64,000 nucleotides of DNA from Candidatus Latescibacterota bacterium. GTDB taxonomy: Bacteria; Latescibacterota; UBA2968. Shown here piece after piece: positions 25,134-32,691 of the stretch. The stretch is taken from NCBI GenBank assembly GCA_965204745.1, contig OZ242010.1:2848001-2912000 (forward strand), in the 5' to 3' direction. Position 1 is the first letter of the stretch. Every line of letters begins with the position of its first letter. Both the position numbers and the translations under genes were made by a program. Below the pieces are notes generated by a model. It ran no database searches and had not been told where the DNA came from. It saw only the letters and a list, made by a program, of their open reading frames with translations.

Positions 25134-26558
25134 ATGGAAAACGCCCTTCTCTTCGCGCCGGAAATCGTTTGCCTGATCATGGGCCTCGCGCTCTTTTTTA
25201 GCGCGGTGCTCAACTGGTCGTATCGCGTCACTCGGCGCATTGCCATGGCATTGGGCATTGCGATGGTCGCGGCGTGTGTGTGGACCTTGCCCCTCGAGGG
25301 CGAACCCTTTTTCCCCGGCATCTACGCGGTCGATTTCTTCTCGCAACTAATCAAAACCGCGCTCGCGGTCGGGTTCTTGTTCGTCGCAATCGTCAGCGCA
25401 GAACCGCTCACGGTCGACCGCAGTGCCTGGGCCGAGATGCCGCTCTTTTTGATCTGTTCCACGCTCGGCATGATGATGATGGTCAGCGCGACCGAGCTCC
25501 TCACCCTGTACGTGGCGATGGAATTGGCCGCGTACCCGGTCTATATCGTCGTCGCGTTGCACCGCAATGTGGATACCGGCGGCGAAAGTGCCACCAAATA
25601 CATGGTGCAGGGCATGGCGGCCTCGGCCATTTCGCTCTACGGGATGAGCTTCCTCTTCGGCGCGTTTGGATCGACTTACTTTTCCGCCATCGGCTTGTCG
25701 CACGCCGCGTCGCAACCCATCTTCTACTTGGGCTTGTTTCTCGCGCTCGCCGGCTTCTTCTTCAAACTCGGCGCGTTTCCCTTCCACTTTTGGGCACCGG
25801 ACGCGTACCAAACCGCGCCCCATCCGGTCATTACATTTGTCGCCACAGTATCCAAAATCGCGGCCATTGGCATCTTGTGCCGGTTGTTGTCGCTGGCGAT
25901 GCCCGGCGGCTGGGAATCGGCCCACGCGCAAACCGCGCTGATGTGGGCGAGTGTCATCGCCATGACCTTGGGCAATCTGGCCGCGCTCGCACAACGCGAT
26001 CTCAAACGCCTGCTCGGGTATTCCACCGTCGCGCACGCGGGTTACGTTCTCCTCGCATTGCAGACCTTCGCCGAATCCGGGCTGACCGCGGCCCTGTTTT
26101 ACGCGCTGGGCTATTTTGCCATGTCCTTTGCGTGCTTCCTCGCGATCTGCGAAGTGGGCCGCAGCGAAGACCACCTCCCCATCAACGCCGTGTCCGGCCT
26201 TTACAAACGCGCGCCATTGCTCTGCTTTACCCTGCTCATCGGCTTGTTCGGCCTCATTGGCCTGCCGCCCACAGTGGGCTTTGTCGGCAAGTGGTTCCTC
26301 TTTTCCGCGGCCCTGCAACGCGGGCAATTCTACCTCGTCCTGATCGCCGCGATCAACGCCACAGTTGCCATGTACTATTATCTCCTCATCATCCGCCAAC
26401 TCTACTGGGCAGAGCCTACGACCCAAGAGCCGATCAAACCGCAACCCCTCGTCGCGCTCACCGCACTGGCGACCATCATCATCGTGGTCGCAATGGGCAC
26501 GGTGCCCGGGCCCTTTTGGGATATGGCCGCGCGGGCGGCGCGGGGTCTCGTTCAGTAG
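25134..26558 (+). CDS. nuoN: NADH-quinone oxidoreductase subunit N
   Basis: FKLGAFPFHFWAPDAY, KRLLGYSTVAHAG. Confidence 0.95.
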   Translation: MENALLFAPEIVCLIMGLALFFSAVLNWSYRVTRRIAMALGIAMVAACVWTLPLEGEPFFPGIYAVDFFSQLIKTALAVGFLFVAIVSAEPLTVDRSAWAEMPLFLICSTLGMMMMVSATELLTLYVAMELAAYPVYIVVALHRNVDTGGESATKYMVQGMAASAISLYGMSFLFGAFGSTYFSAIGLSHAASQPIFYLGLFLALAGFFFKLGAFPFHFWAPDAYQTAPHPVITFVATVSKIAAIGILCRLLSLAMPGGWESAHAQTALMWASVIAMTLGNLAALAQRDLKRLLGYSTVAHAGYVLLALQTFAESGLTAALFYALGYFAMSFACFLAICEVGRSEDHLPINAVSGLYKRAPLLCFTLLIGLFGLIGLPPTVGFVGKWFLFSAALQRGQFYLVLIAAINATVAMYYYLLIIRQLYWAEPTTQEPIKPQPLVALTALATIIIVVAMGTVPGPFWDMAARAARGLVQ

Positions 26559-26795
26559 GTCGTGTTGACATTTTATTTTTGGGAATTATATACAAAGTGG
26601 CCGGAATCATTATTACACAAATTATTCGATTAACACACTTCGAATCCATAAGATACTCTCTAAGAAATCGAAATCGCATGTTCACCCCCGCAAACAAATA
26701 AGAATTATCAAAATTATTCAAAAAATATCCCCCCAGACAGACAACAGAAAACCCACCTGAGAGGATATTCTCTAAATACACCTCATTACAACATG

Positions 26796-27023
26796 TTAAT
26801 GTCCATTAAAGACTTTCTCCATCCTTTCCATATATCCCCGATCACCCCCAAATTCCTTCTCCAACCTCTGTCGCAAAAATTGACGTTCCGCCTGTCGACC
26901 TTCTTGTCGACCTTCTTGTCGACCTTCTTGTCGACCTTCTTGTCGACCTTCTTGTCGGGCCTCATCGCGCAGTTTCTTTGCACGGTATTCCCGTCGATTA
27001 GACAAGAAGTCAAAAAAATACAT
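26796..27023 (-). CDS. Small ORF with (QEGR)n repeats, possibly the 3' part of an interrupted passenger gene
   Basis: 12-bp tandem repeat at ~26893-26958. Confidence 0.45.
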   Translation of the reverse strand: MYFFDFLSNRREYRAKKLRDEARQEGRQEGRQEGRQEGRQEGRQAERQFLRQRLEKEFGGDRGYMERMEKVFNGH

Positions 27024-27030
27024 GATCCCA

Positions 27031-27160
27031 CCTGATACCTTTCTGTTGACACTTATTAACAGTCAAGCCAAAGTCAATAAGTGTTCAACCAGTGCAAGTT
27101 ACGTCAAACAATCACGCAACTTGGGTGTATCCCCCAAAGCACGGAGAAAAATACCCCGTG
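27031..27160 (-). ncRNA. Putative omega/reRNA scaffold at the IS607 right end (5' boundary uncertain)
   Basis: Hairpin acacttatt...aataagtgt at 27049-27084, directly after the tnpB stop. Confidence 0.55.
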
Positions 27161-28568
27161 CGCCATTTAGATCTCGATCCATCGCCTGACCATCTATCCG
27201 ACTACGAATGACTTTCGCACCGCCCAAGTTCTTCACACGCTCGCCTGTCCAACTGACTGTTTTGGACGTGTATGCCTCATTGACATCGAAGACCAACTTG
27301 CCGGTCTCAAATGCTTTGTGCTTGAGAAACTGCTTGAAGCGGTAATGGGCGAAGGTCAACATACTGCGAACAGATTTACGACGAAGGCAACGCCGACCCC
27401 GCACAACCATCTCGGTCGTCTCAAATGTGGGCAACAGAATCACATCGTAGTTGTCCACCAGCCAACGAGACACCTGCTTGTGCAGTTCATCGATCAAGTC
27501 TCGTATGCGCCAGCGTAACCGACCTGTCGCACGCTTCAAACGCACCTTGCGAAAGCCAATAGCCTTTGTCATGCGACCGATCAACTCGTCAAGGTGAACA
27601 CACAAACGTTGGATACGACCAAAATCGCCCTCGCCAATCTTACCGCAGTCATTCTCAGAATAGAACGTCAAGAAACTGCGAATACCCGGATCAAGTGCCA
27701 CGACGCGCCCTTGGGTCTCGGCTACGCGCCGTGGACTTGAATAGGGCACAGTCACATAGTACCGACCCTGATGAACAATAAATCGACCATCTTTTACTGC
27801 CGCAACAGATTCGGACAACCGAATAGCACCAAGACTGCGAGGGTATATGGTCGTCCGATCTTTATTCCAAGCCACATTGCACAAAGCAAACGATTGTGTA
27901 GGGCACTTCCTCTCCCGAAAGTTTAAGAGCACCTTTCGCTTTTTCCCTTTCTTCTTCAATCGGTTACGCTCACGCCAAACGGCTTGGTTTGCCCTGTACG
28001 CATCGGTTATCGCACCAGACAATATCTTGCTCGGCACATCGCCAAAACGCTTAGGACTCACCGCACGGACAATCACACGCATCTCATACTCAGACAACGG
28101 AAAGCCCGCACGATACAAGGACACCGCCTCGTTATACCACCAACGACTCGCCGACATCCACAAGTCAATCAATGAACGCTGTTCAGCGTTCAGATAGACT
28201 CTTATCTTTCTTGATTTTGTCACGATATTTGCGGAGTCCGGACAGCCGACAAGAGAACGTATCGAGAATGGACAAAATATCTTCCGTGAGTTCTTGTTCT
28301 GGACGACAACTTGACTCGTCGAGAACCACGACCTCGCCCCCGTTTTGCTTTGCCAACCACTCAATAAGTTCAAAGCCGAACCGTGCAAGGCGGTCTTTGT
28401 GGGCAACCACAATCCGCAACTTCTCTCCGCTGTGTAAGCGTTCCAGTAGGGCAACAAGTCCCTTCCGCTTCCAGTTGAGGCCTCCGCCAATGTCTTTGAC
28501 GACCTCTGCTCCGGGATAACGGGATTGCAAGAGGGCAACTTGCCCTCGCAAGTCGTCTTTTTGGGCAT
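27099..28568 (-). CDS. tnpB: TnpB of Fanzor2-like (pro-Fanzor) type; start uncertain (frame open to 28730)
   Basis: ALDPGIRSF, ILLPTFE, VNEAYTSKT, DRDLNGARGI. Confidence 0.88.
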   Translation of the reverse strand: MPKKTTCEGKLPSCNPVIPEQRSSKTLAEASTGSGRDLLPYWNAYTAERSCGLWLPTKTALHGSALNLLSGWQSKTGARSWFSTSQVVVQNKNSRKIFCPFSIRSLVGCPDSANIVTKSRKIRVYLNAEQRSLIDLWMSASRWWYNEAVSLYRAGFPLSEYEMRVIVRAVSPKRFGDVPSKILSGAITDAYRANQAVWRERNRLKKKGKKRKVLLNFRERKCPTQSFALCNVAWNKDRTTIYPRSLGAIRLSESVAAVKDGRFIVHQGRYYVTVPYSSPRRVAETQGRVVALDPGIRSFLTFYSENDCGKIGEGDFGRIQRLCVHLDELIGRMTKAIGFRKVRLKRATGRLRWRIRDLIDELHKQVSRWLVDNYDVILLPTFETTEMVVRGRRCLRRKSVRSMLTFAHYRFKQFLKHKAFETGKLVFDVNEAYTSKTVSWTGERVKNLGGAKVIRSRIDGQAMDRDLNGARGIFLRALGDTPKLRDCLT

Positions 28569-28758
28569 AACTGCTGACCCGCGCATAGCACACAACGGCA
28601 ACGCCAACTTCTTCCCGCAAGAACGCATCGACATTGTAAAGCCTCCGACCACCCGGACTGCGGATATGTTCAATCCGACCGTCAGTCGCCCACTTACGCA
28701 ATGTGCTCGGATGAACGCCAAGCAAAGCAACCGCTTTGCGAGTATTTACATACGCCAT
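28183..28758 (-). CDS. tnpA: IS607 TnpA serine recombinase with an N-terminal MerR-like HTH
   Basis: LGVHPSTLRKW, YARVSS, KDRLARFGFE, FSCRL. Confidence 0.95.
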   Translation of the reverse strand: MAYVNTRKAVALLGVHPSTLRKWATDGRIEHIRSPGGRRLYNVDAFLREEVGVAVVCYARVSSYAQKDDLRGQVALLQSRYPGAEVVKDIGGGLNWKRKGLVALLERLHSGEKLRIVVAHKDRLARFGFELIEWLAKQNGGEVVVLDESSCRPEQELTEDILSILDTFSCRLSGLRKYRDKIKKDKSLSER

Positions 28759-28797
28759 AGTAACAACATACGGCTTTTGTGAACAAATGTTGACAAT

Positions 28798-29064
28798 TTA
28801 TTTCCTACACGCTACTCCTCCAAAATGAGAAATACCAAACCAATACCCTACAAATGCCACCAATTCCTCCCAATCTTTATCCACTATCTCAGGACTCCAT
28901 CCCGTCCATAACACTGACCAACCCGACGCTTTACTGAGTCCAAAAACAAAAGCAAGTGCGATAAAGAAAATGTTGTTGTATAAATCATACTTCTCAGCAA
29001 TCTTCTTCCATTTGTCCGATTTCATATCAGACCTTAAGTCTTTCTGTCTTTCTGCCACACACAC
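28798..29064 (-). CDS. Small membrane protein (passenger), ending at the IS607 left end
   Basis: gaggagg RBS with GTG start; hydrophobic segment. Confidence 0.5.
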   Translation of the reverse strand: MCVAERQKDLRSDMKSDKWKKIAEKYDLYNNIFFIALAFVFGLSKASGWSVLWTGWSPEIVDKDWEELVAFVGYWFGISHFGGVACRK

Positions 29065-29379
29065 CTCCTCAAAAAAAGGGGATTATATACAATAGTGCCG
29101 GAGAGTGCTTGACGAAACCTTTACCACTAAATCACACTTTTTTTTACTTTCTCAAAGTATTCTCGCCAGAACTCCAAATAATCCTTTTCTGACTATCAGA
29201 ATAAAATCACAATAAGCTCTCTCTATATATATCTAAAATCATATTGTCAATGTTTTTTTATTATTCAAACATCAAAATTCCTCAAACATCAAATCCCGGC
29301 CACTTTGTATATAATTCCCTTATTTTTTTTCTCACAGATTAGCAATGTGTTGCTTACTCATTTAGAGATACGGTTCATT

Positions 29380-29797: not shown

Positions 29798-29944
29798 TTC
29801 TGTTGCCTGGTGTTATCCGTATGAAAGCGATCTCGTTTGCTATGGGTTTGTAGTGGCGTGCGTCTTTGATGCAGAATAAGGGCTTGTGGGGCGTGCCTGA
29901 CAAACGCCCCAAATTCTTTCTCTCTCTTATTGGAGGGTTGCAAA

Positions 29945-31498
29945 ATGTTGAAGCGTATGTTTGGTTGTTTCGCAGTTGTCTTGTTGGCGCTGGCAATGCA
30001 ACAGCCCGTTGCCGCACAAAACAGTGCCGACTTTGATGGCGATGGCACGGTGGGCTTTGCAGACTTCTTGGCGTTTGCAGGGCAATTTGGTGCCCAGCGC
30101 GGAGACGGCAGATACCAAGCCAAATTTGATCTGAATAGCGATGGCAAGATTGATTTTGCAGACTTTCTACGCTTTGCCAGCAGCTATGGTCAGTCAGTGC
30201 CACCTAGTGGCGGGGGCGGTAGCGGGGGCGGTAGTAGCGGCGGCGGCGGGGGCAGTGGTGGTAGTGGTGGCGGTAGTAGCAGTCCCGATCTGATCGTTGA
30301 ATCGCCTTCTGTCAGCGATAGCACGCTGACGCCTGGGCAATCCTTCACCCTGCAAGTCACCGTTCGCAATCGGGGCACGGGGCAATCAGCCTCGACGACC
30401 CTGACCTATTACCGCTCGTCCAATTCGACGATCTCTACGAGCGATACAGAAGTGAGCACGGATTCGGTCAGCGGTCTGTCCGCTTCGGGCACAGGTTCGG
30501 AATCGATCAGGCTAACTGCTCCGTCGAGTACCGGCACGTATTACTACGGCGCGTGTGTGGCAAGCGTCAGCGGCGAGACCGATACCCGCAACAACTGCTC
30601 AACAGGCGTGCGCGTTACGGTGAGTGGCGGCGGCGGTAGCACGGAAGTTGTTATTCCCGATGCCAACCTTCGCGCTGAAATTGAGAGCCGTTTGGGCAAG
30701 GCACGCGGTGCGCCGATCACACGGGCAGACATGGCGAGCTTGACGCTGATTGACGCGGGAGGTGCGGGCATTAACGATTTGACAGGGCTTGAGTATGCAA
30801 CCAACCTGACAACGTTAGGGCTTAGCGGCAACCAGATCTCGGATATCGCCGCATTATCGGGATTAACCAACCTGACAAAGTTATGGCTTTGGAGCAACCA
30901 AATCTCGGATATCGCCGCATTATCGGGTTTAACCAAACTGACAGAGTTACGGCTTAGCGGCAACCAAATCTCGGATATCGCCCCACTATCGGGATTAACC
31001 AAACTGACATTCTTAACCCTTTCCGGCAACCAGATCTCGGATATCGCCGCATTATCGGGATTAACCAAACTGACATACTTAAACCTTCGCGGCAACCGAA
31101 TCTCGGATATCGCCCCACTATCGAGATTAACCAACCTGACATCGTTACTGCTTAACGACAACCAAATCTCGGATATCGCCGCGCTAGCGGGATTAACCAA
31201 CCTGACATGGTTATCCCTTTACGACAACCAAATCTCGGATATCGCCGCATTATCGGGATTAACCAACCTGACAAAGTTATGGCTTTGGAGCAACCAAATC
31301 TCGGATATCGCCGCATTATCGGGATTAACCAACCTGACAGAGTTAGACCTTGATCGCAACCGTATCTCGGATATCGCCGCATTATCGGGATTAACCAACC
31401 TGAGAGTGTTATACCTTCAAGACAACCCGTTGAGTGCCACATCAAGAAACACGCACATTCCGGCACTTCGGGCCAGAGGGGTTACGGTGATTTTTTAG
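29945..31498 (+). CDS. Secreted dockerin-like/CARDB/internalin-type LRR protein
   Basis: Signal peptide; DFDGDGTVGFADF EF-hand pair; Gly linker; PDLIV...YYGACV domain; ten 22-aa LRRs. Confidence 0.9.
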   Translation: MLKRMFGCFAVVLLALAMQQPVAAQNSADFDGDGTVGFADFLAFAGQFGAQRGDGRYQAKFDLNSDGKIDFADFLRFASSYGQSVPPSGGGGSGGGSSGGGGGSGGSGGGSSSPDLIVESPSVSDSTLTPGQSFTLQVTVRNRGTGQSASTTLTYYRSSNSTISTSDTEVSTDSVSGLSASGTGSESIRLTAPSSTGTYYYGACVASVSGETDTRNNCSTGVRVTVSGGGGSTEVVIPDANLRAEIESRLGKARGAPITRADMASLTLIDAGGAGINDLTGLEYATNLTTLGLSGNQISDIAALSGLTNLTKLWLWSNQISDIAALSGLTKLTELRLSGNQISDIAPLSGLTKLTFLTLSGNQISDIAALSGLTKLTYLNLRGNRISDIAPLSRLTNLTSLLLNDNQISDIAALAGLTNLTWLSLYDNQISDIAALSGLTNLTKLWLWSNQISDIAALSGLTNLTELDLDRNRISDIAALSGLTNLRVLYLQDNPLSATSRNTHIPALRARGVTVIF

Positions 31499-31506
31499 TT
31501 CCGTGT

Positions 31507-32691
31507 GGCGTTGTTGCATAAATAGCAATTTCCTGCAAGTTGGGATTGCAAAAAGACAGGCTCCTTCGTAGATTGGGCATATAGATCACCAAAACAACTC
31601 ACCCTTTCTCACCAGGAACCTGTCATGCCCAAGATAACCGCTTCCAAACCCGCCGTCAAGTCCCCGCGTCGCCCGCGTCGCCCGCGCTGTGCGCCTGTCT
31701 ATCGGGTTAGGAACTGGGCGGCCTACGAGGCCGGTCTCAAGCAGCGGGGCAGTCTGACGTTTTGGATCACGCCGCAAGCTCTTCGGGGGTGGTACCATCA
31801 AGGGCCAACGCAACGGGGGAGGCAAAACACCTTTTCAGATTTGGCTATTCAAACGGCATTGATGGTGCGCTTGGTCTATGCCTTGCCCCTGCGTCAAACC
31901 GAGGGGTTTCTCAAGTCCATCCTGGCATTGATGGGGGTGGATTTGCGTGTGCCCGATCACACGACCCTCTGCCGGCGACAGGGCGATTTGAACGTGGATT
32001 TCCCTGTCCAATCCCGTCACGAGCCGATCCACTTGGTGGTGGATTCTACCGGCCTGAAAGTGTATGGCGAAGGCGAATGGAAGGTGCGTCAACACGGCTT
32101 TTGCAAGCGCCGGACTTGGCGCAAATTGCACATCGGCGTCGATGAGGCCACCGGGGAGATTGTCGCACAGACCCTGACCTCGGCAAGCGTTGATGACGCT
32201 TCGCAGGTCAACCCCTTGCTCGATCAAGTCCCGGCCCCTGTCCATACGCTGGGCGCCGATGGCGGCTATGACAAACGCAAGGTCTTCAACACATGCGCCG
32301 CCCCCAAACAAGGAGCCCCCATCCGACCTCTGATTCCCCCGCGCCATGATGCCAAAATTGAACAACACGGAAACAGGAAGGCACCCCCCCTCGCCCGCGA
32401 TGAAATCATCCGAGCGATCAGGCGTCAAGGCCGCCGACAGTGGAAACGCACCAGTGGCTATCATCGTCGCTCGGTCGTTGAAACCCACATAGGCCGCTAC
32501 AAACAACTCATTGGGCGGCAGTTGCGCGCACGAAAAAAGAAGAACCAAGAAACGGAAGCACGGTTGGGATGTGCGGTGCTCAATCGCATGATGAGGATCG
32601 CGAAACCCGTGTCCTATCCCATAGAAAGAAGGGCTTAAATTTCGCGGGAAAGGGACGAACTTCGCCACGACAACATTTATGCAACAACGCC
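31507..32691 (+). mobile_element. IS5-family (IS903 group) insertion sequence, 1185 bp
   Basis: 17-bp TIRs ggcgttgttgcataaat; 9-bp TSD gttccgtgt (31498-31506, 32692-32700). Confidence 0.95.
31625..32638 (+). CDS. IS5/IS903 DDE transposase
   Basis: NWAAYEAGLKQRGSLT, VDSTGLK, ADGGYD, YHRRSVVET. Confidence 0.95.
   Translation: MPKITASKPAVKSPRRPRRPRCAPVYRVRNWAAYEAGLKQRGSLTFWITPQALRGWYHQGPTQRGRQNTFSDLAIQTALMVRLVYALPLRQTEGFLKSILALMGVDLRVPDHTTLCRRQGDLNVDFPVQSRHEPIHLVVDSTGLKVYGEGEWKVRQHGFCKRRTWRKLHIGVDEATGEIVAQTLTSASVDDASQVNPLLDQVPAPVHTLGADGGYDKRKVFNTCAAPKQGAPIRPLIPPRHDAKIEQHGNRKAPPLARDEIIRAIRRQGRRQWKRTSGYHRRSVVETHIGRYKQLIGRQLRARKKKNQETEARLGCAVLNRMMRIAKPVSYPIERRA

Follow-up and report, generated by a model that had tools for sequence, protein, structure and literature searches.

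What kind of nuclease is encoded at this locus, and where does its protein begin? The locus lies in a stretch of 64,000 nucleotides (nt) from a Candidatus Latescibacterota bacterium (GenBank assembly GCA_965204745.1, contig OZ242010.1, positions 2,848,001 to 2,912,000), here called the window, to which all coordinates refer. An earlier note, made from the letters of this DNA, had described a minus-strand open reading frame (ORF) of 489 amino acids (aa) at 27099 to 28568 as a TnpB related to the Fanzor2 nucleases and linked to an IS607-type transposase; the part of that ORF at 28183 to 28568 already lies inside the transposase gene tnpA, in another frame. We consider it quite probable that the whole is an IS607 element carrying a zinc-less homing nuclease of the TnpB2 lineage whose N-terminal domain (NTD) is embedded in tnpA. 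Within a large and under-described zinc-less branch of the TnpB2/pro-Fanzor lineage, the element is an ordinary member and apparently active, and it is the out-of-frame overlap encoding a Fanzor2-like NTD, absent from the earlier note, that lifts the finding above routine.

The 489-aa ORF exists, is intact, and contains every motif named for it (DPG, ILLPTF, VNEAYTSKT, DRDLNGARGI, and SKTVSWTG...IRSRIDG). Its start at 28568 is an in-frame ATG within the longer reading of tnpB, a 511-aa product (P0274; 27099 to 28634, minus strand) on which residue numbering is based here; the frame stays open up to 28730 (a 543-aa ORF). The 374-aa core (27099 to 28223, minus strand), with WED, REC, RuvC, and a zinc-less TNB region, is the part covered by family hidden Markov models (HMMs), and GTG 28223 would be its alternative short start. 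The DPG motif is D315-P316-G317 (D315 codon, 27692 to 27690). In ILLPTF, Pro402 (codon, 27431 to 27429) aligns to the canonical RuvC-II Glu of the canonical TnpB-like chain 9yyg_A, while Glu453 of VNEAYTSKT (codon, 27278 to 27276) aligns in NVNEYLTTKT of the mimivirus Fanzor2 chain 9b0l_P and is followed by six residues and then by Val460 at the first zinc-finger Cys position, as expected of an alternative Glu. Asp488 of DRDLNGARGI (codon, 27173 to 27171) aligns to the DRD of the same Fanzor2. The triad given for mimivirus Fanzor2 in the available text of PMC11832414, D324/E467/D501, thus falls on D315/E453/D488. That these motifs are not due to chance follows from their near universality in 255 aligned homologs (300 aa or longer): the Pro of DPG is found in 248, and the Pro at the canonical Glu site, the alternative Glu, and the last Asp in 251 each. 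The homologs were taken from two large protein searches, in which 3071 of 6809 candidates in one and 5498 representatives in the other passed E ≤ 1e-3. The alignments point to Asp315, Glu453, and Asp488 as the predicted catalytic triad of a large family, with Pro402 where canonical TnpB has Glu.

Family and fold comparisons place the protein beside Fanzor2, as the earlier note had supposed. It matched PF07282 with 48 bits (cutoff, 26.3; E = 1.5e-12) and PF12323 at E = 1.7e-6. When the 374-aa core was searched against Protein Data Bank (PDB) sequences with phmmer, 9b0l_P was the best hit (1e-22), followed by an AI-designed nuclease (9.9e-5), and natural TnpB and Cas12f chains reached 0.015 or worse. 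A profile of 150 relatives gave the same first hit (9b0l_P, 3.6e-71), followed by the designed nuclease (1.5e-30), ISFba1 TnpB (1e-23), and ISDra2 TnpB (2.4e-20). The AlphaFold2 model of the core had a mean predicted local distance difference test (pLDDT) value of 94.6; with this model as the query, Foldseek also ranked 9b0l_P first (5.9e-20; TM score, 0.74) and ISDra2 TnpB second (4e-16). With the 511-aa model, VIA-align recovered TnpB and Cas12f folds at Z scores of 18 to 28, consistent with a WED-REC-RuvC-TNB fold. These comparisons assign TnpB to the DPG/alternative-Glu (TnpB2/pro-Fanzor) lineage and predict that it cleaves DNA under RNA guidance.

Upstream of tnpB on the same strand lies tnpA (28183 to 28758, minus strand), a 191-aa IS607 serine recombinase gene without internal stops. 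Its product scored 170.1 bits against NF033518 (cutoff, 110) and contains Resolvase (PF00239; 5.4e-16) and MerR-type helix-turn-helix (HTH; PF00376; 1.2e-8) domains, bearing out the proposed linkage to IS607 TnpA, and its catalytic-serine motif, YARVSS, is intact in the window copy. The two genes share 452 nt (28183 to 28634, minus strand), in which tnpA codons 42 to 191 can be read in the +1 frame as tnpB residues 1 to 150. Family HMM matches begin only at residue ∼116 to 121 of the 489-aa ORF, which sets the preceding stretch apart as a separate NTD: residues 1 to 59 are predicted to be disordered and are followed by the motifs PYW (62 to 64), LWLP (75 to 78), and SWF (102 to 104).

To what extent could this open frame be a by-product of tnpA? 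We compared 76 loci in which tnpA is complete (from cyanobacteria, Poribacteria, Caldilineaceae, and the genus of the window), and the third frame and synonymous shuffles were used as controls because all six tnpA copies in the genome belong to this family. In the final 150 codons of tnpA, no stop interrupted the tnpB (+1) frame in 69 of the 76 loci; the third frame had a mean of 8.2 stops and was open in none, and shuffling those tnpA codons synonymously left a mean of 3.3 stops in the frame of tnpB. Silent sites are constrained in the overlap: third-position p-distances, computed on codon alignments, were 0.329 in the tnpB core and 0.248 in the tnpA-only 5′ part, and within the overlap they were 0.161 in the tnpA frame and 0.097 in the tnpB frame. 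The frame and motif are also found open in copies whose tnpA is broken by an internal TAA (L003 and L008), carries a late TAG (L004), or is lost (L005 and L006). In three IMG/VR loci with no tnpA within 3 kb (L166, L170, and L176), at least SWF is kept; PYW is present only in L170, and L166 and L176 have FYD. Judged by these sequences, the NTD frame is independent of tnpA. As a separate observation, L005 (G000:C1:753461-757564) and L006 (G000:C1:3118320-3122423) retain only a scrambled tnpA remnant with stops in the tnpA frame, and these natural tnpB-only derivatives, with a 481- to 487-codon open tnpB frame and the NTD motif, provide a useful internal control for the overlap.

The NTD itself resembles that of Fanzor2. 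In an alignment of 99 long forms, W64, L75, S102, W103, and F104 are kept in at least 90%, and the PYW..LWLP..SWF series recurs in distant finger-bearing relatives with long lysine-rich linkers. The family profile gave a single unbroken alignment to mimivirus Fanzor2, beginning at chain residue 72, with SWF on S83-W84-Y85. In the AlphaFold2 model of the 511-aa form, residues 60 to 80 (pLDDT values, 91 and 83) and 100 to 110 (86) were confidently placed; VIA-align matched model residues 60 to 505 to residues 53 to 518 of 9b0l_P (Z = 28.1; 414 residues aligned), and all 49 other entries listed began at model residue 95 to 139 (46 of them at 132 to 139). Profile and fold alignments of the predicted protein thus both find a structured NTD before WED, a feature of Fanzor2. 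The overlap is also present in 59 of 80 IMG/VR loci, including finger-bearing relatives on viral contigs and on a giant-virus metagenome-assembled genome (MAG); in 17 of the remaining 21, the WED start was not placed by the motif search, and these are hence uninformative.

These data bear on a simpler account, which we regard as unlikely, in which TnpB consists of the 374-aa core alone, translated from GTG 28223, and the open frame through tnpA is an untranslated by-product of TnpA sequence or codon usage. It would suit the late onset of the HMM matches, the ability of the 374-aa form to fold alone with high confidence, and the many database entries of 375 to 420 aa, and a phmmer search of the PDB with the single long ORF (543 aa) left the NTD unaligned to 9b0l, which only the profile reached. 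However, the synonymous shuffles carry stops in that frame (mean, 3.3) where 69 of 76 loci have none, the third frame is never open, the frame and motif persist in the tnpA-broken copies and SWF in the three tnpA-less loci, the alignments extend into the experimentally observed NTD of Fanzor2, and no Shine-Dalgarno motif is evident before GTG 28223. The product is most likely a 511-aa protein translated from ATG 28634 and overlapping tnpA by 452 nt, as its sequence context suggests: a GGAGG Shine-Dalgarno-like motif (28642 to 28646, minus strand) lies inside tnpA, 7 nt upstream of the ATG (28634 to 28632). A GGAG[GA] or AGAGG motif occupies the same place before the ATG in all five tnpA-bearing copies of the genome, and an ATG is found 125 to 165 codons before the WED start in 72 of the 76 loci.

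The NTD could instead be reached by a programmed +1 frameshift from tnpA, giving a TnpA(HTH)-NTD-TnpB fusion rather than a product of internal initiation. Such a route is suggested by the tnpB frame being open almost from the tnpA start here, and for 170 to 198 codons in many loci, and by the MerR/HTH_17 and TnpB domains combined in P0319, a 550-aa protein. We think it very unlikely, given the conserved ATG and Shine-Dalgarno-like motif at the internal start. Moreover, the residues before ∼60 are unconserved and predicted to be disordered, the frame opens only at about codon 143 in L003 and L007, no slippery site was seen, though none was searched for, and P0319 may owe its form to an indel. 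P0319 is a metagenomic relative that joins the HTH_17/MerR N terminus of TnpA to TnpB in one ORF; it could be an indel artifact or a natural TnpA-TnpB fusion across the overlap.

The full tnpB lies within a discrete mobile element. The element spans 27032 to 28814 (minus strand; 1,783 bp), as defined by an empty-site joint and by the ends shared among copies, with tnpA preceding tnpB; its left end is TAGCG at 28814 and its right end is ...GGTATCAG, the last base being 27032. Public contigs from three studies (runs X1, X2, and X7) fuse 27031 directly to 28815 with exactly 1783 nt absent, and at the joint two letters, reading AG, can be assigned to either side. The element is thus discrete and joined without target duplication at a shared dinucleotide, as is typical of IS607 elements. 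A blastn search of the same genome with both flanks returned only the paralogous site of L006. Similarity among the genome's eight copies begins just after GGAG and ends at the right end given above. Seven full-length tnpB copies are free of stops (the window copy and six that are 79 to 83% identical to it), one further copy is broken by a frameshift, and one is a 30-aa fragment; three of the six tnpA copies are stop free. Multiple copies per genome are likewise characteristic of IS607 elements. Across the five tnpA-bearing copies (10 pairs), the ratio of nonsynonymous to synonymous substitution (dN/dS) in the tnpB core is 0.19. Copies L001 and L006 are inserted at paralogous positions, each flanked by the same pair of small genes, which is what guided homing or a site preference would be expected to produce. 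We conclude that this is an autonomous, intact, mobile IS607-type insertion sequence in a Latescibacterota-type genome.

A guided nuclease should be accompanied by a guide RNA. A structured RNA of 135 nt with five helices (27031 to 27165, minus strand; covariance model R1), taken as the modeled part of an omega RNA or right-end RNA scaffold, covers the final 67 nt of tnpB with its stop codon, the right end, and the first flanking G. Model R1, built from the eight copies, gave 100 matches over the loci of 100 relatives, with at least one match in 97 loci. The match at the tnpB 3′ end is full length in 96 loci and 3′ truncated in L109; a second match elsewhere in the locus was found in L020 and L029, and none is listed for L077 and L087. 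Among 92 distinct sequences, 93.5% of cells were paired, 34 of the 39 pairs changed on both sides, and 519 cells carried double changes, compared to 153.6 ± 10 in shuffles (none of 500 reached 519) and at most 66 with slid partners; these pair counts are inflated by an alignment fitted to the model, yet the margin is large. No Rfam match to positions 26300 to 29300 was found at E values up to 1. A conserved structured RNA at the 3′/right end, as in TnpB elements, is accordingly present; its expression and binding are predicted.

By analogy with ISXfa1, whose scaffold takes in the first flanking nucleotide, with the guide after it (available text of PMC10711439), the first ∼20 nt after the scaffold (27011 to 27030, minus strand) are predicted to encode the guide. 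The flanks differ between copies, except at the paralogous sites of L001 and L006. Directly 5′ of the left end, GGAG (28815 to 28818, minus strand) is a candidate transposon-adjacent motif (TAM) that includes the AG crossover dinucleotide, and in eight of eight copies it lies within 0 to 1 nt of the left end. From these features a working cycle can be proposed. TnpA would excise and insert the element by crossover at the AG dinucleotide. TnpB, starting at ATG 28634 and drawing its N-terminal ∼135 residues from the +1 frame of tnpA, would bind the structured RNA, a transcript of the tnpB 3′ end and the right end; those ∼135 residues would be the counterpart of the Fanzor2 NTD, with Ser-Trp-Phe matching Ser83-Trp84-Tyr85 of the RuvC-R element. 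With the flanking ∼20 nt as its guide, TnpB would cut the vacated site beside the GGAG-type motif, and recombination after the cut would restore the element. The element is apparently active, a prediction supported by the covarying 3′ RNA, the seven diverged intact copies, and the precise empty site.

Several results count against this account. The match of TnpB to NF040570, over the core, is marginal (101.1 bits; cutoff, 100). The empty-site contigs diverge by 5 to 10% from the window and may represent a related strain or a paralogous cassette rather than excision in this strain, and the covariation counts carry the inflation mentioned above. For the NTD, residues 1 to 59, 84 to 97, and 115 to 133 of the 511-aa model fall below a pLDDT of 50, VIA-align reports first and last aligned residues only, and the single-ORF phmmer search stopped short of the domain. 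A Shine-Dalgarno-like motif stands near any candidate start in only 41 of the 76 loci, and many cyanobacterial ones have none. Conservation of the NTD motifs could partly reflect conservation of TnpA in another frame, and none of the 19 listed runs that hold the stretch is an RNA run.

Does the loss of the zinc finger change the role of the protein? The sequence VSWTG...RSRIDG stands at the positions of CSNCG...CESCG in Fanzor2 (alignment to 9b0l_P), so that the four Cys positions are occupied by V, T, R, and I/D. Among the 255 homologs, a complete CxxC..CxxC is found in 41, and 188 have at most one Cys in the region, including proteins of Moorena producens, Lyngbya, and Aphanothece. The TNB region was nevertheless modeled at pLDDT values of 89 to 97 despite the lost cysteines, and its fold is predicted to be kept without them. 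Relationships were examined with a FastTree phylogeny of 195 rows, rooted on four canonical TnpBs from same-genus genomes (IDVG, VEKL, and CxxC..CxxC); the link to Fanzor2 rests on the PDB comparisons, the tree being without any named eukaryotic Fanzor, and of the 130 proteins retrieved with the giant-virus-MAG relative L178 as the query, none carries a eukaryotic or viral name. All 191 nonoutgroup rows formed a DPG/alternative-Glu clade (support, 100) with the window protein inside it, and the protein therefore does not cluster with canonical TnpB, the outcome that the earlier note had named as decisive against its reading. Within the clade, 128 rows, all finger-less, were united with a support of 100, the finger-bearing rows formed a basal grade, and the seven copies of the window genome formed one clade (support, 100). 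The finger-less clade contains 37 cyanobacterial rows, 25 from Ca. Poribacteria, 5 from Caldilineaceae, the 7 own copies, 40 IMG/VR contigs, and single rows from Competibacteraceae, another proteobacterium, and a Bacteroidota MAG. On this tree, the zinc-finger loss is old and essentially single.

The earlier view of the zinc finger is therefore half right: the cysteines are absent, and their absence is no peculiarity of this gene, the whole 128-row clade, with Moorena, Lyngbya, and Nostoc among its members, having lost them as well. Fanzor2 has retained the finger, and the finger-less clade is therefore a derived side branch and not the Fanzor stem, and the suggested relevance to bacteria-to-eukaryote transfer was overstated, as this protein is no closer to the transfer than other members of the lineage. 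The label pro-Fanzor does not fit either, at least by the operational definition in the available text of PMC10711439, whose search pattern requires CxxC..CxxC; such a motif search missed the finger-less clade because the pattern excludes it by construction. One might also suppose that the loss left the clade nuclease dead or repurposed, for instance as an RNA-guided repressor, instead of a homing nuclease. All four cysteines are indeed replaced, and TnpB-derived nuclease-dead regulators are known. We hold this to be the most improbable of the alternatives, because the catalytic triad is kept in 251 of the 255 homologs, the elements are multicopy and tnpA linked with a precise empty site, the core has a dN/dS of 0.19, and the TNB region is confidently modeled; finger-less TnpB branches are, moreover, still regarded as active in the accessible part of PMC10691335. 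Zinc-finger loss or mutation is described across whole TnpB branches, such as RIIIr-4 (Altae-Tran et al. 2023 PNAS, PMC10691335, in the part available). RIIIr-4 shares with the window clade a branch-wide loss of the four-cysteine (C4) finger with a conserved catalytic site, and the two differ in that the rearrangement affects RuvC-III in RIIIr-4 and RuvC-II in the window clade.

How does the element compare with characterized systems? The closest by protein is ApmFz2 (Acanthamoeba polyphaga mimivirus Fanzor2, TnpB-like protein L79, PDB 9B0L). Both have DPG, DRD, and WED-REC-RuvC, both lack Glu at the canonical RuvC-II position and carry the alternative Glu in xNExxT(S/T)KT, and the N-terminal SWF aligns to S83-W84-Y85 of RuvC-R. 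In the portion of the structure paper available, residues 65 to 91 of mimivirus Fanzor2 form this RuvC-R element, which completes the RuvC fold, and Ser83 contacts the guide-RNA pseudoknot. Fanzor2 has also been placed in an IS607-type context (PMC3627910, available text). ApmFz2 differs in having a C4 zinc finger and an N-terminal nuclear localization signal, and its overall identity to the window TnpB is ∼20%. Its host is viral/eukaryotic, whereas the window element sits on a bacterial chromosome (5.48 Mb) and in this respect is not a Fanzor2. In the window element the NTD is encoded inside tnpA; ApmFz2 was compared by protein only.

The pro-Fanzor/TnpB2 proteins (Yoon et al. 2023 NAR PMC10711439; Jiang et al. 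2023 Sci Adv PMC10530073) likewise have DPG, the alternative Glu, Pro at the canonical site, and an IS607 TnpA, and the window TnpB is ∼50% identical to Moorena, Lyngbya, and Nostoc proteins. The published pattern, as given in the text available, needs the CxxC..CxxC that is missing from the window TnpB and from 188 of 255 relatives (0 to 1 Cys), and the same text states a cyanobacterial host as exclusive, whereas the host here is noncyanobacterial. ISXfa1 (IS607) and ISDra2 (IS200/IS605) TnpBs have the same fold (8h1j_A; Z = 25.5; Foldseek, 4e-16) and a 3′ guide RNA over the ORF end and right end. ISXfa1 also has a dinucleotide crossover with the first flanking base fixed, although its crossover is GG rather than AG (PMC10711439, as far as available). 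Their canonical Glu lies ∼50 residues upstream, they have D-hydrophobic-G and not DPG, the zinc finger is present, and they lack the NTD, with fold alignments starting at model residue ∼136.

Much of this was established before. The rearranged active site, its activity, and the absence of collateral cleavage are reported in the available text of PMC10530073 and PMC11832414, and the IS607 link and the Fanzor ancestry model are in that of PMC10711439 and PMC3627910. Word searches of PMC10711439, PMC10530073, PMC3627910, PMC13565253, and the IStron preprint, a set that includes a review of September 2026, found no account of a tnpA-tnpB coding overlap or of a Fanzor2-type NTD in bacteria; supplements and subscription journals were outside this scope, so that an earlier mention is possible. 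We found no literature linking TnpB with overprinting. We lean slightly toward the broader proposal that the structured NTD, which has been described as unique to Fanzor2, is ancestral to the whole bacterial DPG/alternative-Glu lineage. It would have arisen, or would at least be kept, through overprinting, with ∼135 to 150 tnpB codons lying in the +1 frame of tnpA, and this would apply to cyanobacteria, Poribacteria, Chloroflexota, Latescibacterota, and giant-virus-like contigs alike.

The Fanzor-related bacterial lineage extends beyond cyanobacteria, and a zinc finger is missing from most of the members sampled. Should the overlap be translated, the Fanzor2 NTD would be older than the move to eukaryotes, the overlap would rank among the longest conserved out-of-frame overlaps in a bacterial insertion sequence, and the birth of a domain within another gene could be tested on it. 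If the NTD is ancestral, the "375-aa compact" pro-Fanzor TnpBs of databases would be truncated annotations missing the element that contacts the guide RNA, and tnpA and tnpB would be physically locked together; such locking, if true, could explain why this lineage alone has stayed with IS607 and was carried as a unit into eukaryotic viruses. Mining for genome editing usually clones the annotated ∼375-aa ORF, and if the NTD contacts the pseudoknot, the right construct would be ∼510 aa.

Which organism carries the element? The window NuoM is 86% identical to that of the Ca. Latescibacterota MAG holding L025, compared to 29 to 40% for the Poribacteria, Caldilineaceae, and Competibacteraceae genomes tested. 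A noncyanobacterial host, as the earlier note had supposed, is upheld by this evidence; the notion that such a host is unusual is not, because 35 of the best 80 genome loci are noncyanobacterial. These 80 comprise 45 loci from cyanobacteria, 26 from Poribacteria, 5 from Caldilineaceae, and one each from Latescibacterota, Competibacteraceae, a proteobacterium, and Acetofilamentum. Four of 40 related same-order genomes searched, all of the same genus, have family members at 50 to 53% identity, and the lineage at at least 79% identity, as among the genome's own copies, is absent from those 40. Public runs with the stretch are labeled "sponge metagenome" (two studies), "marine metagenome" (one), or with coded organisms (five), and one of these runs may be the source of the window. 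The first of these labels makes the proposed animal-associated host plausible.

Two further observations concern relatives of this TnpB. Same-genus genomes (G007 to G025; e.g., L096 to L099) contain many copies, with up to 21 matches in G011, of a canonical 377- to 379-aa TnpB with IDVG, VEKL, and intact CxxC..CxxC, so the genus hosts two very different TnpB lineages; the search of the window genome for tnpB copies returned none of the canonical kind. Relatives are encoded by 253 IMG/VR stretches (loci L100 to L179) whose contigs are classed as viral; of these contigs, some measure 100 to 310 kb with 26 to 36% G+C, and one is a giant-virus MAG (L178), viral being the class given by the database.

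The surroundings of the element are themselves variable. An 88-aa hydrophobic ORF (28798 to 29064, minus strand) lies upstream. The ORF downstream (26796 to 27023, minus strand), of 75 aa, contains QEGR five times in tandem with a period of 15 nt, AAGGTCGACAAGAAGG...; the same gene pair, 82 to 88% identical, flanks copy L006. The number of QEGR repeats varies, with 60 to 62 nt missing at 26894 to 26960 in contigs. Contigs of runs X1, X2, and X10 fuse ∼26580 to ∼29335 to 29344 with 14 to 23 other letters between, and the whole 2.75-kb segment from nuoN to a leucine-rich repeat gene, containing the insertion sequence and the two small flanking ORFs, is swapped for a short sequence in some strains. 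The element seems to sit within another variable cassette. Farther along, a plus-strand ORF (29930 to 31498) encodes a secreted protein of 522 aa that combines a dockerin/EF-hand-like N-terminal repeat with a Gly/Ser linker and about ten leucine-rich repeats (LxGNQISDIAxLSGLTxLTxL), a eukaryote-like repeat type common in sponge symbionts that fits the "sponge metagenome" run labels. It is followed by a 337-aa ORF (31625 to 32638, plus strand) that resembles, by eye, an IS5/DDE-type transposase.

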